Virus genome (UHGV): UHGV-2008032
DNA length: 40,884 nucleotides
Direction: 5' to 3' (one strand)
Source of the DNA: a virus
This document shows, one piece after another, positions 2,793 to 36,339 of the stretch. Below the pieces are notes generated by a model. That model had not been told where the DNA came from. It saw nothing but the letters and a program-made list of their open reading frames with translations, and searched no databases. Numbering within the stretch: the stretch's first letter is position 1; each line of letters opens with the position of its first letter. Made by a program: the position numbers and the translations under genes.

Positions 2793-3956
2793 TCACGCGA
2801 TATTCACCAGTTCAGCAAAAGCGCCTTGTGCCATATTTGTGCCATTCCCCGCCAGAAATGAGTCGATTTGCATGGCATGCTGCGTCAGGTGATTCGGTGC
2901 CAGATGGGCATAACGCTGTACCATCTCGATACTTTCCCACCCGCCCATTTCCTGTAGCGCACTGAGTGGCACGCCGGACTGTACAAGCCAGCTTGCCCAG
3001 GTGTGCCGCAGGTCATGGAAGCGGAAATTTTCTATTCCCGCCCGCCTTAACGCTGCTCGCCATGCCGTGTTAGCATCAGACCGCATTTTGCGCACTGCCT
3101 TTGTTCTCGTTCCATCCGGGCGAACGGATGATTCAGTGTGAACAAAGACCCACCGGTTATGTTTCCCCAGCTGCTCCCGCAGCACCTTACAGGCCGATTC
3201 GTTCAGGGCGACCCCAATCGCCCTTCCTGCTTTCGCGTCCTCGGGGTGAATCCACGCGACCTTCCTCTGCATATCAATTTGTGACCACTCCAGATCGGTG
3301 ATGTTCGACCTGCGCAGCCCCGTCGCCAGTGCAAAAATAACAACTGGCTTCATATGCTCGGGAAGTTCCCGGATCAGGTTCGCCGCTTCCTCTTTGGTTA
3401 GCCAGCGAATACGCTTATTTTTCGGCACCGGGCATTTGATGTTCGGCGCCTTGGCTATCCATCGCCATTCGTTGGCCGCACATCGTAACAGCGCCCGGAT
3501 GAAAGCAAGGTGCGTCGCCTTCGTCGCCAGCGACGCTGGTTTATCCTTAAATTCAGGAACCGGCTTACCTCTTCGCAGCAGGCTGTCCCGTTTCGCCTCC
3601 CAGTTCATTCGATGTTTGCGATTAACCATCGAACTCACCGCCGACAAGATCCTGTCTTCCGTGATTGCTGACAGGTCCATTCCTTTGAAGTGCATTCTCC
3701 AGAATCCGATCCGGCTTTTGTCATCGTCCAGGCTTTTCTTGTGCTGCTTTTCGTTAAGCCAGCGAACGCACGCTTCATCGAACGTTCTCGGCTTAAACTC
3801 ACCCATCTTATCAACTCGCCATGCTTCAGCTTTCAGCTGATCATAGAGCTCCTGCGCTTGCCTTTTGTCCGTTGTCCCAAGAGACCGTCTAATTCGACTT
3901 CCACCAGGCGTAACGAAGTCGCAGTGCCACGTACCGGCACGTTGTTTGATTGACAT
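2793..3956 (-). CDS. int: Tyrosine integrase
   Basis: 387 aa; N-terminal arm-binding-like domain; C-terminal HDLRHTWAS ... VQRYAHL catalytic motifs; adjacent to att core. Confidence 0.9.
2827..2841 (+). repeat. Arm-type repeat TGTGCCATATTTGTG (P' arm, inside int 3' end), tandem with TGTGCCATT
   Basis: Exact copy of 2609..2623 on the other side of the core. Confidence 0.5.
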
Positions 3957-10402: not shown

Positions 10403-11044
10403 TCAGGAGAATTTCATCATCATCTGCACTGCTACGCCGATTATCTTGCAGTTGCCGTCGATTGGGATCAACGGATAGGCAGGGTTAAGCCCTTTCAGGT
10501 ATTTGTTACCGCCATCAATGATTAGCTTCTTGAACGTGGCTTCATTAGCATCTGTCAGCTTCGCAACTACCAGGCTTCCATTAACGGCTTCCTTTCCAGT
10601 GTCGAACAGAACCAGCATACCCTCAGGAACGCTAAGGCCGGTAGGAGCTGTCATTGAGTCGCCCTGAACCCTGAGCCAGAAGGCGTCACCGACAACGTGA
10701 CAATCTGATTCATACCACTCATCCACTGCCTGAGGGTTGTACGGCTCTACGGCCTCACTCCATGCACCTGCGCTAACCCAGCTAATCAACGGAAACTTTT
10801 CCCCTGGCTTGTATTGTCCCTGATAGTTGTCGCCAAAAAGCAGTTCTGCCGGAGCGACACCCAAAGCTTTAGCTATTACCTCTGCGTCATCAACACTAAC
10901 GCTTCTGGTTCCTGATTCATAGTTGCCGATCCGAGATTGTGAAGCCCAGCCGCAAAGCTCCGCAAGAGCCTTCTGTGTAAGCCCTTTATCTTCCCGTAAT
11001 CGCTTGATACGCGCGGCGATAGTTTCTGTTCTGTTCATGCGCAT
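10403..11044 (-). CDS. cI: CI-like repressor (HTH plus LexA-like S24 autopeptidase)
   Basis: N-terminal XRE-type HTH; C-terminal GDSM serine and downstream lysine; divergent from cro; -10-like TATAAA abuts the ATG, so the mRNA may be leaderless. Confidence 0.85.
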   Translation of the reverse strand: MRMNRTETIAARIKRLREDKGLTQKALAELCGWASQSRIGNYESGTRSVSVDDAEVIAKALGVAPAELLFGDNYQGQYKPGEKFPLISWVSAGAWSEAVEPYNPQAVDEWYESDCHVVGDAFWLRVQGDSMTAPTGLSVPEGMLVLFDTGKEAVNGSLVVAKLTDANEATFKKLIIDGGNKYLKGLNPAYPLIPIDGNCKIIGVAVQMMMKFS

Positions 11045-32105: not shown

Positions 32106-33266
32106 ATGACGCAGGGCTTACCTGTATCCAACGTTGTAAACGTTGATGTGATCATCTCGCCGAAAGCGGCTACTGGTCGTAACTTCGGCGCATTGCTAAT
32201 CCTTGGCTCTTCCACTGTCATTCCGGTGACAGAACGTACTCGCCTATATGCTTCCATTGAGGACATTGGCGAAGACTTCGGTGTCGACAGCCCGGAATAT
32301 AAAGCAGCGCAGGTTTTCTTCAGCCAGTCACCGAAGCCGACACAGGTTTATGTTGGTCGCTGGGCGAAGACGCTGAGTTCTTCCGAGAGTGGAGATACTG
32401 AAACTATCGTGCAAGCCGTTAATGCCTGCCTGCAATATACCAACTGGTATGGGCTGGTTGTCGCTGATGATGTTGTCGCTGGTGGCGATGTGCTTGATGC
32501 TGATGACGTGATTGAGGTTGCTAAACTCATCGAAGCGTCCAGCCTGAGCCGCATTTTCGGGGTAACATCTGCTGACGCCGAGATTATCAGCACGACTTCG
32601 ACGACTGATGTTGCGTCGAAATTAAAGGCTGGCAAGTATTCCCGTACCTTTGTTCAGTATTCCACCAGCAGCCCTTATGCGGCTGTTTCAGCTTTCGGTC
32701 GCGCGTTTACTGTCAATTTCAACGGCAGCAATACCACCATTACCCTGAAATTCAAACAGGAACCGAGCGTAACCTACGAAACGCTGACGGTAGGACAGGC
32801 GGCGGCTGTGGATGCGAAGAATGCGAACGTGTTCGTGTACTACGCCAACGACACGGCGATCCTGCAACAGGGCGTCATGGCGAACGGTGACTTCTTCGAC
32901 GAGCGCCACGGGCTCGACTGGTTGCAGAACTACGTTCAGACCAACCTCTATAACCTGCTTTACACCAGCACCACCAAAATTCCGCAGACTGATGCCGGTG
33001 TGACCCGTCTGCTTTCCAACGTTGAACAGTCCATGGATCAGTCCGTCACGAACGGTCTGGTAGCGGCTGGCGTGTGGAATGGTGGACCTATCGGACAGCT
33101 GAATTCCGGCGATACGCTGACCAAAGGTTATTACGTGTATGCGCAACCTCTTTCAGAACAGGCGCAGGCCGACCGAGAAGCTCGCAAAGCACCGTTAATT
33201 CAGGTGGCCTGTAAGCTGGCTGGCGCAGTTCATTATGCCGATGTGCAGATCAACGTGGTTCGCTAA
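32106..33266 (+). CDS. Tail sheath protein
   Basis: 386 aa immediately upstream of the tube gene. Confidence 0.55.
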
Positions 33267-33276
33267 GGAGCGATAA

Positions 33277-33717
33277 ATGGCAACTTATTCTTTTCTCGAT
33301 GTAACCGCGTCGCTCACCGGGCCGACCGGCGTTATCGATCTTGGTCAGGGTTCTGCCAACTCTGAGGAAGGTATCACCCAGACCATGGGCGGCAACAAGA
33401 ACACTATGACCATCGGTGCCGATGGCGAAGTGATGCACAGCCTGCACGCCGATAAGTCAGGCACCATTACGGTGACGCTGCTGAAAACCTCCCCGGTGAA
33501 CAAGAAGCTGTCTCTGGCGTATAACGCGCAAAGCCAGTCCTCTGCCACCTGGGGCAATAACGTGATCGTCATTCGCAACACGGCATCGGGTGATATTTCT
33601 ACTGCGCGTTCGTGCGCATTCCAGAAACAGCCTGATTTCAATAACGCCAAAGAGGGCGGGACTGTTTCCTGGGTGTTCGACTGCGGCAAGATTGACCAGC
33701 TGCTCGGGGAGTTTTAA
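33277..33717 (+). CDS. Tail tube protein
   Basis: 146 aa between sheath and chaperone genes. Confidence 0.55.
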   Translation: MATYSFLDVTASLTGPTGVIDLGQGSANSEEGITQTMGGNKNTMTIGADGEVMHSLHADKSGTITVTLLKTSPVNKKLSLAYNAQSQSSATWGNNVIVIRNTASGDISTARSCAFQKQPDFNNAKEGGTVSWVFDCGKIDQLLGEF

Positions 33718-33720
33718 CGC

Positions 33721-34146
33721 ATGGAATTCGAAATTAAAGGCGTGAAATATCGCACCGCAAAGCTCAGCGTTTTCGAACAGCTGAAGGTGTCCCGCAAGCT
33801 GTTGCCGGTGCTGGCCGGGATGGTTTCTGACTTTCGGAGCGTTCAGGAGAAGATCAGCAGCAAAGACACCGAAGGCGCGATGGCTACCATCCTGCCAAAG
33901 ATTGCCAATGCTGTGTCCGATCTGAGCGATGGCGACGTGGACGCTATCCTGTTCCCCTGCCTTTCCGTTGTTTCACGCGAGCACATGAAAGGCTGGGTGC
34001 CGGTCTGCCAGCATGGCGAAATGGCGTTTGACGATATCGACCTGCTGACCATGCTGCAACTGGTGGCGCGGGTGGTCGCCGACTCGCTGGGAAATTTTTT
34101 GCAAGGACTCCCTACCAGCGAGACGCCCACCCCGCCAGCGGAATAA
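33721..34146 (+). CDS. Tail assembly chaperone (zero-frame product)
   Basis: 141 aa directly upstream of the tape measure gene; contains a slippery heptamer near its 3' end. Confidence 0.6.
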   Translation: MEFEIKGVKYRTAKLSVFEQLKVSRKLLPVLAGMVSDFRSVQEKISSKDTEGAMATILPKIANAVSDLSDGDVDAILFPCLSVVSREHMKGWVPVCQHGEMAFDDIDLLTMLQLVARVVADSLGNFLQGLPTSETPTPPAE

Positions 34147-34334
34147 CCTTCAACAGCCTGCCGGGCGGTGAAGATTTTATTCTTCGTCCGGCGCTTGCCT
34201 TCCAGATTGACCAGAAAGACCTTAACAGCGGTGCGGTAGACCTCTGCCGCATCGCGCTTCTCAATGACTACCTCGACATGCGCGAGGATAACGACGCCCG
34301 GGTAGATAAATGGAGAGCGGCCAATGAGCGGTAA
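34095..34334 (+). other. Programmed -1 frameshift site T_TTT_TTG and -1 frame extension of the tail chaperone
   Basis: Heptamer 34095..34101 in the zero frame (aaT TTT TTG); -1 frame is open from there to TAA 34332..34334, which overlaps the tape measure start. Confidence 0.55.
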
Positions 34335-36339
34335 CGCAGATACGATTAAAGATTTCCTTGTTTCGCTGGGATTCGATATCGATCAGGCTGGCGCTAATAA
34401 GTTTGAAGCCGTGCTGAAAGGCGTTACCGCGAACGTTCTGAAGGTCGGCGCGGTGGTGAAAGGCGCAGCGCTGAGCATTGTCGGATTTACCACCCAGATC
34501 GCGAATGGTCTGGATAAAATTTACTGGGCATCCCAGCGGACGGGGGCCAGCGTCCAGGGCATCAAAGCGCTGGGCTATGCCGCATCGCAAACTGGCGCCA
34601 GCGCTGAGTCGGCCATGTCCTCCCTCGAAGGGTTGGCTGGCTTCATGCGTAGCAATCCGGGGGCGGAAGGGTTCCTGAACCGTCTTGGTGTCCAGACCCG
34701 CGATGCCAGCGGAAAGATGCGTGATACTGCTGCCATCTTTACTGGCGTTGGGCAAAAGCTCAACAACATGCCGTATTACCGCGCGAAGCAATACGCGCAG
34801 ATGCTCGGCATCGATGAAAACACGCTGATGGCGATGCGCAGAGGGATGGGGCAGCTCAGTTCTGAGTACGCGTTGACGGCAAAGCGTATTGGTTTTAATG
34901 CTGAGTCAGCGGCTAAACAGTCCAATATTTTCATGACCTCCATGCGTAATCTGACGATGACGCTTGGACAGGCGAAAGACAAGATTGGCTCTAACCTAGC
35001 TGGTGGCCTTGCTGGCAGCATTGATAACTTCCGCAGGCAGATACTCGACAACTGGCCGAAGATTGAAGCGGTCATCACGAAGATCATCAAAGGAATTCTC
35101 TGGGCAGGTGACGCGATTACCCGCGTGTTATGGCGAACTGGGCAAGCTGTTGAGGGTGTGATCGCCTGGTTCAAAAAGCTGAACCCAGCCACGCAGCAGC
35201 TTATCGCATTGTTCAGTGGGCTGTTGGTTGCATGGCGGCTGCTAAATACCGCTTTCATGTCATCACCCTTGGGCATGATAACGACGCTTATTATTGCACT
35301 TGGTCTGCTCTTTGATGATTACCAGACGTGGAAAGAAGGTGGCAAAAGCCTGATTGACTGGGGGAAATGGAAGACTGAAATTGATCAGGCCGTCAAAATG
35401 ATTGGTGACCTGAAAAAGACTGTTACGGACCTGACAAAAGCGCTGGCTAAGTTGCTCGGTATTGACCCCAAGTCATGGTCCCTAAAGTGGGATTTTAGCA
35501 ACTTCATTTCGCAAATGGGTGAGTTCGGCAAGATGCTGAACATGATCGCCGACCTGCTCAACGCCATTAAAGATGGCCGCTGGGCTGATGCCGCCAGCAT
35601 CGGCAAACAGATGCTTAATCAGGGCAGCGAAAATCCGTCAGCGATGCCGATGGTAACAGACAGCGCCAACGGAACCGCCGACTGGATTAAAGAGCACTGG
35701 GGATTCGATCCTCGCAGCGTGGGCCGAACGGTGCGCGGCTGGTTCGGTGATGATGAGCCTGAACAGCTCGGCCAGTCAGTTAAGCGGCCACAGCCAACCA
35801 AAGCAGGCTCTGAACTGCTGGGATGGATGCAGCCGATGTTTACCAACCTGGAACAGCTCTACCGGCTTCCGGAGGGGTTATTGCGCAGCGTGGCCATAAC
35901 GGAATCGGGCGGTAATCAGTTCGCCGTTTCAGGCGCTGGCGCGAAAGGTCTGTTTCAGTTTATGGATGGCACGGCGCGCGACATGGGCCTGCGTGGCAAT
36001 GATGTATTCGACCCGGAAAAGTCAGCTCAGGCAGCCGCTAAGTACCTCAGCCAGCTGTTGCGGCAGAACGGCGGAGACCTTAGCAAAGCACTGGCATCAT
36101 ATAACTGGGGGATCGGGAATGTTAAGCGTTATGGAATGGGGCTAATGCCGCAGGAAACGCGCAACTACATTCCGAAAGTAATGAGCAATATGCCCACCAG
36201 CGCCCCGGTGATTCAGCAGGAAACGAATATTAACATCCACGGTGTTTCCGATCCGCGTGAAGCTGCCCGTTTGACTGTTGACCGTCAAAAGGGCGTGAAT
36301 TCACAGTTAACCCAGCAACTCCCCGCAGGACCGAGATAA
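34324..36339 (+). CDS. Tail tape measure protein with C-terminal lytic transglycosylase-like domain
   Basis: 671 aa; central hydrophobic segments; C-terminal ...ITESGGNQFAVSGAGAKGLFQFMDGTARDMGL...NWGIGN... SLT-like. Confidence 0.75.
   Translation: MSGNADTIKDFLVSLGFDIDQAGANKFEAVLKGVTANVLKVGAVVKGAALSIVGFTTQIANGLDKIYWASQRTGASVQGIKALGYAASQTGASAESAMSSLEGLAGFMRSNPGAEGFLNRLGVQTRDASGKMRDTAAIFTGVGQKLNNMPYYRAKQYAQMLGIDENTLMAMRRGMGQLSSEYALTAKRIGFNAESAAKQSNIFMTSMRNLTMTLGQAKDKIGSNLAGGLAGSIDNFRRQILDNWPKIEAVITKIIKGILWAGDAITRVLWRTGQAVEGVIAWFKKLNPATQQLIALFSGLLVAWRLLNTAFMSSPLGMITTLIIALGLLFDDYQTWKEGGKSLIDWGKWKTEIDQAVKMIGDLKKTVTDLTKALAKLLGIDPKSWSLKWDFSNFISQMGEFGKMLNMIADLLNAIKDGRWADAASIGKQMLNQGSENPSAMPMVTDSANGTADWIKEHWGFDPRSVGRTVRGWFGDDEPEQLGQSVKRPQPTKAGSELLGWMQPMFTNLEQLYRLPEGLLRSVAITESGGNQFAVSGAGAKGLFQFMDGTARDMGLRGNDVFDPEKSAQAAAKYLSQLLRQNGGDLSKALASYNWGIGNVKRYGMGLMPQETRNYIPKVMSNMPTSAPVIQQETNINIHGVSDPREAARLTVDRQKGVNSQLTQQLPAGPR

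Follow-up and report, generated by a model that had tools for sequence, protein, structure and literature searches.

The stretch analyzed in this work, the virus genome UHGV-2008032 (40,884 nucleotides, referred to below as the window), carries a contractile tail module in which a gene for a tail assembly chaperone is followed, in the -1 frame, by an overlapping open reading frame (ORF) that reaches the start of the tape measure gene, with a run of slippery heptamers located near the end of the chaperone gene (Table 1). The order sheath, tube, chaperone, tape measure places the chaperone between the tube and tape measure genes, which is the position by which pairs of the G/GT type are recognized. 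The zero-frame product, of 141 amino acids and ending in ...GNFLQGLPTSETPTPPAE, matched the Pfam family Phage_TAC_15 (PF21822) with 114.9 bits over residues 6–128 (gathering threshold 22) and the tail assembly chaperone family phrog_1688 at 3e-57.

The zero-frame codons around the site were ...CTG GGA AAT TTT TTG CAA..., and the heptamer T_TTT_TTG, which the original prediction had placed 43 nucleotides (nt) before the chaperone stop, was read there directly at 34095–34101 in X_XXY_YYZ phase. The zero-frame TAA (34144–34146) starts 43 nt past the final base of this heptamer, with 14 codons between both. Two further heptamers had been missed, G_GGA_AAT and A_AAT_TTT, which overlap T_TTT_TTG in phase within the 13-nt run GGGAAATTTTTTG; the heptamer proposed in the first place is therefore present but is only one of three candidates. 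After a slip, the first codon in the -1 frame falls at 34101 and 77 sense codons are read before a TAA at 34332–34334 (78 triplets when this stop is counted, in agreement with the extension of about 78 codons originally estimated), the frame being open already from 34032 (34032–34334). The tape measure ATG (34324–34326) precedes the -1 stop by 6 nt and hence the two ORFs overlap by 11 nt; the stop is thus located inside the beginning of the tape measure ORF, but it does not overlap the ATG itself, as had been claimed. A slippery run situated 14 codons 5' of the stop and leading into an open -1 frame is a property of G/GT-type pairs.

The comparative evidence came from 65 loci of different Enterobacterales species, belonging to many genera and with 46–100% identity in the chaperone protein. 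These loci were collected with two peptide patterns, one of which contained GNFL; since the patterns are degenerate at the DNA level, the synonymous conservation obtained is not an artefact of the search. TTTTTTN was found in phase, around 42 nt before the stop, in all 65 loci, and the heptamer of the original prediction, as T_TTT_TTN, is therefore the only universal one of the three in this Enterobacterales clade. The exact 13-mer appeared in 54 of the relatives; all three heptamers were present in 56 of them, the second and the third in seven, and T_TTT_TTN alone in two (L111 and L118, both with a change of Asn to Ser). Ranked by synonymous codon entropy, the bottom four of 46 conserved degenerate columns were Gly124 (GGA, 98%), Asn125 (AAT, 100%), Phe126 (TTT, 100%), and Leu127 (TTG, 98%); the neighboring Asp121, Ser122, and Leu123 varied freely, with 2, 6, and 4 codons used, respectively. 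The T6 was exact in 80 of 80 close relatives from IMG/VR. The -1 extension continued for 61–66 codons past the stop (approximately 63) and ended at the tape measure start in 64 of the 65 loci. The remaining locus, L108 (Enterobacter sp. R1(2018), about 2970–2990), presented a 5-bp CCCGG duplication that cuts the extension after 23 codons past the stop, and is probably a decaying prophage.

The two-frame arrangement, whose maintenance among diverged relatives is also characteristic of the G/GT type, was kept beyond this clade. A tblastn search with the conceptual fusion matched 40 of 40 phage records, 39 of them in two frame-shifted pieces and one in the chaperone part only. Distant phages retained the extension and exchanged the heptamer at the same L-G-x-F position: G_GGA_AAT only in Bordetella IFTN9 (site GGGAAATAC, no T run), G_GGA_AAT plus A_AAT_TTT in Acinetobacter Ab105-1phi (site AAATTTTA, T run of 4), C_CCT_TTT in Burkholderia Magia and BgManors32 (Burkholderia site CCCTTTTA, T run of 4), and G_GGT_TTT plus T_TTT_TTC in Ralstonia PY059YO380; an Edwardsiella phage, considered below, departed from this. 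A different situation was observed in L081 (Logan SRR23924998, 2470–2490; protein P0004), where seven Ts are present and chaperone and extension form one in-frame ORF of 213 amino acids with the junction GNFFAY. This locus may be a true but rare variant that makes only the fusion, or else result from a sequencing or assembly error in the homopolymer; its in-frame chain fits with the fusion acting as a functional polypeptide.

The region past the zero-frame stop displayed the substitution pattern of a coding sequence in the -1 frame. The synonymous share of pairwise codon differences was 40% in this frame vs. 7–8% in the other two, and -1 frame entropy, 0.74 at the first codon position and 0.59 at the second, reached 1.40 at the third. 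The extensions of the 65 relatives were conserved from the first post-slip codon, following the pattern ARTP(Y/R)QRD...LPGGEDYILRP...VDLxDIALMNDYL...KWR. In the window, the conceptual fusion comprises 204 amino acids, and its last 77 residues carry the LPGGED(F/Y)ILRP motif together with the domain DUF6889 (PF21829), which was matched by residues 165–200 with 41.6 bits (gathering threshold 23.9; 1e-10); the frameshift-only part also matched phrog_4364 at 3e-17. An AlphaFold model of the extension, based on 21 sequences, was mostly helical and of moderate confidence (predicted local distance difference test, pLDDT, 69), and a Foldseek search against PDB found no fold match for it; phmmer with the chaperone against PDB sequences gave nothing meaningful. 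Judging from these sequence data, the -1 ORF encodes a conserved protein.

This ORF lacks a start codon and a ribosome binding site of its own, which is again a property of the downstream member of G/GT-type pairs. The sole start-like codon of the -1 ORF in the window is an ATG at 34278, which leaves 18 codons to the end and is not preceded by a Shine-Dalgarno sequence. In 52 of 66 sequences there was no ATG, GTG, or TTG in the -1 ORF 5' of the LPGG motif, and a start-like codon accompanied by a Shine-Dalgarno-like sequence was found 5' of this motif in only one of the 66. No conserved start codon column appeared before column 56 of the 80 in the alignment of the extensions, and no promoter-like site was found between the chaperone and the extension ORFs.

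The reading that we favor, with a probability of around 0.9, is that the chaperone gene undergoes a -1 ribosomal frameshift producing a short and a long form. The original prediction had recognized here the conserved chaperone fusion arrangement of tailed phages, and gene order, the slip site, the missing start, the protein domain, the conserved layout, the frozen synonymous sites, and the annotation of the homologues in phages Mulock and Magia (see below) all bear it out. A minority of ribosomes would slip back 1 nt on G_GGA_AAT_TTT_TTG (34089–34101) and the slipped ribosomes would read the -1 frame on to the TAA at 34332–34334. Two products with a common N-terminus would result, an abundant chaperone of 141 amino acids and a rarer fusion of 204. 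By analogy with gpG/gpGT of lambda and gpE/gpE+E' of P2, the shared N-terminal part would coat the tape measure protein, and the C-terminal part present only after frameshifting would bring in the tube protein, so that first the tube and afterwards the sheath polymerize around the tape measure; by the same analogy, neither chaperone form would be expected in the finished virion. Within this scheme, the sequences show directly the geometry of the slip site, the coding status of the -1 frame, the absence of a separate start, and the conservation of these features among the relatives, and we infer the ribosomal nature of the slippage, the ratio between short and long forms, the heptamer most used, and the binding roles of both parts.

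Several points weigh against a ribosomal frameshift. The literature search found no protein-level or reporter evidence for this phage or its chaperone family, and the genome paper of Klebsiella phage Mulock makes no mention of a frameshift. The GNFL contained in one search pattern biases the amino acids found at the slip site. Edwardsiella phage vB_EpM_ZHS (L154, about 970–1010) retains a homologous -1 extension without a canonical X_XXY_YYZ heptamer (CTC GGG GAT TTT ATG); a single-tRNA slip on T_TTT or another mechanism may operate there. According to E. coli reporters, U_UUG is a weak A-site tetramer and U_UUU_UUG falls outside the efficient heptamers (PMC4066793). As regards stimulators, RNAalifold on 56 relatives gave 0 pairs of a conserved downstream RNA structure, and region 34102–34200 of the window folds at -33 kcal/mol with a z-score of only -2.3; mapped on the alignment, this fold showed no covariation, and 58% of cells were paired, a share equal to that of shuffles. 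The Shine-Dalgarno-like GGGTGG upstream is weak and distant from the slip site.

Stimulated -1 frameshifting of the dnaX or IS3 type is defined by a conserved downstream hairpin or pseudoknot, or by a Shine-Dalgarno-like element 6–17 nt upstream. No downstream structure of this kind was found at the chaperone site, and a downstream RNA stimulator was rejected as a conserved feature, given the lack of RNAalifold pairs, the shuffle-level pairing, and the absence of any Rfam match at the slip region. The GGGTGG was one of the two strongest anti-Shine-Dalgarno positions in a 450-nt profile (mean of 63 relatives, -4.9 kcal/mol), being at or below -5 kcal/mol in 62% of the sequences, and Val118 (GTG) showed unusually low synonymous variation. 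Its spacing is longer than usual for dnaX-type stimulators; it could be a weak frameshift stimulator, as an unproven lead. An RNA stimulator seems not to be needed, as reported for P2.

Concerning the heptamer involved, motifs of the type H_HH.U_UU.Y (including A_AAU_UUU and C_CCU_UUU) are among the efficient ones in E. coli reporters (PMC4066793), and T_TTT_TTG may not be the main site because U_UUU_UUG is not in that class. The frozen third base of GGA is required by the first two heptamers only. A slip at the third site would give the junction GNFLAR and a slip at either of the first two GNFFAR, the corresponding junction peptides being VVADSLGNFLAR for a slip on T_TTT_TTG and VVADSLGNFFAR for a slip on G_GGA_AAT or A_AAT_TTT, or for a transcript with one U added. 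As far as the sequence allows, we concluded that the whole 13-nt run would be the functional unit, each of the three heptamers being a candidate for the main site. A more elaborate proposal, which we put forward only tentatively and consider somewhat doubtful, is that G_GGA_AAT_TTT_TTG acts as a stimulator-free tandem slip site offering three consecutive -1 chances, all of which would contribute and set the chaperone to fusion ratio without RNA structure, giving mixed GNFFAR and GNFLAR junctions; alongside, DUF6889 would be the frameshift-only "T" domain of Phage_TAC_15 chaperones.

The same fusion, with the junction GNFFAR, would also be produced by transcriptional slippage, if RNA polymerase stuttered on the T6 and added one U. 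The T6 homopolymer is present at the site, and the T7 variant L081, which encodes the fusion in frame, illustrates that one nucleotide more gives a functional-looking product. Productive slippage by bacterial RNA polymerase usually needs, however, runs of about 9, and the T6 is short for it; a homopolymer of around 9 or more, conserved as such, was not found. Moreover, distant relatives keep the two-frame layout with 4 or 0 Ts and always, Edwardsiella excepted, with an in-phase heptamer, whereas synonymous conservation reaches GGA and AAT, which is relevant to tRNA re-pairing and not to a stutter on the T run. We consider this explanation very improbable. Slightly less credit still can be given to the -1 ORF being an independent small gene, expressed through a start of its own or through ribosomes that reinitiate past the chaperone stop, with no fusion. 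In favor of it, the RefSeq annotation (PGAP) of E. coli genomes contains a separate "DUF6889 family protein" of 42 amino acids, equivalent to 34206–34334 of the window (2430–2558 in the relative L147), and many small-ORF calls of 42–75 amino acids exist in public databases. The PGAP start is, however, an ATT, no ATG, GTG, or TTG occurs in the -1 frame of the window before 34278, and the N-termini called lie at at least eight different, non-homologous positions. Protein conservation with synonymous variation begins at the slip site, well before any of the called starts, and the scarcity of start-like codons 5' of LPGG (none in 52 of 66 sequences), together with the lack of a promoter-like site between the ORFs, also speaks against it. 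These variable calls look like annotation artefacts of an unrecognized frameshift. Some public records mislabel the extension ORF as "lytic transglycosylase", and the C-terminal SLT domain of the tape measure protein is probably the reason why small neighbor ORFs receive this name.

It could finally be argued that heptamer and open -1 frame are coincidental by-products of amino acid composition and G+C-rich sequence. Around 3% of random in-gene positions of the window are followed by 77 or more open codons in the -1 frame, and a heptamer at the 3' end of the tape measure gene also enters an open frame by chance. In the approximately 10,400 codons of the 46 putative genes of the window, 24 in-phase XXXYYYZ heptamers were counted, and the -1 frame passed the zero-frame stop only for the three heptamers of the chaperone and for that other one, A_AAG_GGC. 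From a single sequence, the coincidence of heptamer and open frame is thus unlikely but not overwhelmingly so, and the comparative evidence is decisive: all 65 loci have the chaperone site, frozen at its synonymous positions, whereas 52 of them lack the tape measure heptamer; the -1 frame combines a protein-coding substitution pattern with matches to curated families; and the relatives, with 46–100% protein identity and from many genera, are not near-clonal. We regard coincidence as extremely improbable, the least credible of the three alternatives to a ribosomal frameshift.

A ribosomal frameshift in this gene has well-known counterparts. As in gpG/gpGT of lambda, the chaperone gene lies directly 5' of the tape measure gene, and the first heptamer, G_GGA_AAT, can be compared with the G_GGA_AAG of lambda. 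Lambda is a siphovirus, whereas the tail studied here is of the contractile kind and its genes include those for sheath and tube. No sequence similarity between the two could be detected, Pfam having given only Phage_TAC_15 and DUF6889 here, and in the present site three heptamers overlap within 13 nt. In lambda the two products share the N-terminus, are made in a skewed ratio, and are not found in the virion (PMC5009743, where mechanism and roles of G/GT are reviewed citing Levin 1993 and Xu 2004). Pairs of the G/GT type are further characterized by a fusion that is produced in a low, fixed ratio, is needed to assemble the tail, and is missing from virions. In the E/E+E' pair of P2, situated between the tube and tape measure genes, the -1 shift takes place on TTTTTTG without downstream RNA structure and gives products of 91 and 142 amino acids (PMC3091744, citing Christie 2002 and Xu 2004 for the shift), with an efficiency 2–3 fold above that of lambda (PMC5009743). 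The present case coincides with P2 in the E. coli myovirus context and in the identical heptamer TTTTTTG; in contrast, both products are larger here (141 and 204 amino acids) and conservation of the slippery run extends upstream over GGGAAA. The Pfam scan (E ≤ 0.01), which gave only Phage_TAC_15 and DUF6889, did not place the chaperone in the gpE/gpE+E' family.

Closer counterparts are the homologues CPT_Mulock_014/015 of Klebsiella phage Mulock and CPT_Magia_015/016 of Burkholderia phage Magia (56 and 37% identity, respectively, by tblastn with the fusion). In GenBank, both phages carry a "tape measure chaperone" and a joined "tape measure chaperone frameshift product"; Mulock presents the same 13-nt run, 45 nt before the stop, whereas Magia has C_CCT_TTT instead. 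These frameshift annotations are predictions at the annotation level only. The "DUF6889 family protein" of RefSeq and Pfam is identical in sequence to the C-terminal part of the extension, but those resources treat it as a separate protein without assigned function, and the literature search found no papers mentioning DUF6889.

Regarding the rest of the tail module (Table 1), the tape measure protein matched phrog_2276 (tail length tape measure protein) at 3e-227 and Pfam SLT at 4e-25 over residues 507–605. The GGAG Shine-Dalgarno sequence of its gene, 8 nt 5' of the ATG, is embedded in the near-invariant K-W-R codons (AAA TGG AGA) near the end of the extension, within 34308–34326; this stretch doubles as coding sequence and as the ribosome binding site of the tape measure gene, and in Mulock the corresponding position carries a ribosome binding site annotation. 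The heptamer A_AAG_GGC lies in phase 42 nt before the tape measure stop and its -1 frame is that of the next, Dit-like gene, so that a slip on it would in principle join tape measure and Dit-like gene. Absent from 52 of the 65 relatives, it was rejected as a second frameshift site and is almost certainly due to chance.

The window (1–40884) represents a temperate myophage in nearly complete form, its early genes being lambda-like. Besides integrase and CI-like repressor, the early and lysogeny genes include Erf, an O-like initiator, and a DnaB-like helicase; terminase, portal, protease, and major head protein represent the head and packaging functions, and the contractile tail module is of the E217/PhiTE/Pam3 type. 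No tRNA genes were found in the window. The unannotated Citrobacter phage Omnitron presented 98.5% identity across the chaperone region, and matches over at least 80% of a 1.1-kb chaperone region were obtained in 39 of 5,426 complete E. coli genomes.

Table 1. Features of the chaperone locus and other genes of the window with their positions.
Feature	Position	Strand	Description or match
Integrase gene	2793–3956	-	
CI-like repressor gene	10403–11044	-	
Tail sheath gene	32106–33266	+	386 amino acids; Pfam DUF3383 8e-103; phrog_205 tail sheath 5e-130
Tail tube gene	33277–33717	+	146 amino acids, directly 5' of chaperone; Pfam KPP10_Orf10 (alternative listing Phage_Tube_PhiTE) 6e-60; phrog_280
Tail assembly chaperone ORF, zero frame	33721–34146	+	141 amino acids; analogue of lambda gpG / P2 gpE; Phage_TAC_15, phrog_1688
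GGGTGG	34070–34075	+	weak Shine-Dalgarno-like candidate stimulator, 16–19 nt 5' of slip sites
Slippery run GGGAAATTTTTTG	34089–34101	+	three overlapping in-phase heptamers
G_GGA_AAT	34089–34095	+	first overlapping heptamer
A_AAT_TTT	34092–34098	+	second overlapping heptamer
T_TTT_TTG	34095–34101	+	third heptamer, named in the original prediction
-1 frame extension	34101–34334	+	77 codons + TAA; T-like C-terminal part of putative 204-amino-acid fusion; DUF6889, phrog_4364
GGAG	34312–34315	+	Shine-Dalgarno sequence of tape measure gene
Tape measure protein gene	34324–36339	+	671 amino acids; C-terminal SLT lytic transglycosylase domain; phrog_2276, Pfam SLT
A_AAG_GGC	36288–36294		in-phase heptamer near tape measure 3' end, rejected
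Dit-like gene	36339–36965		gene following tape measure
Baseplate genes	3' of tape measure		Dit-like, Pam3_gp18 plug, E217_gp41-like hub

The feature described is already known, being of the textbook lambda G/GT or P2 E/E+E' type, and its homologous product is annotated in GenBank; it contains nothing surprising to phage biologists and opens no new question. Absent from the records searched were an experimental confirmation for this family, DUF6889 as a frameshift-only domain, and the conserved triple-heptamer run. Practical value is mainly in annotation. The evidence, of a comparative nature, says that DUF6889 would be the C-terminal domain that the Phage_TAC_15 chaperone gains only through the frameshift, and RefSeq records should therefore carry a ribosomal-slippage join, as those of Mulock do. 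The conserved triple run, without a conserved RNA stimulator, would constitute a convenient natural test case for the way in which the effects of overlapping heptamers combine in E. coli.

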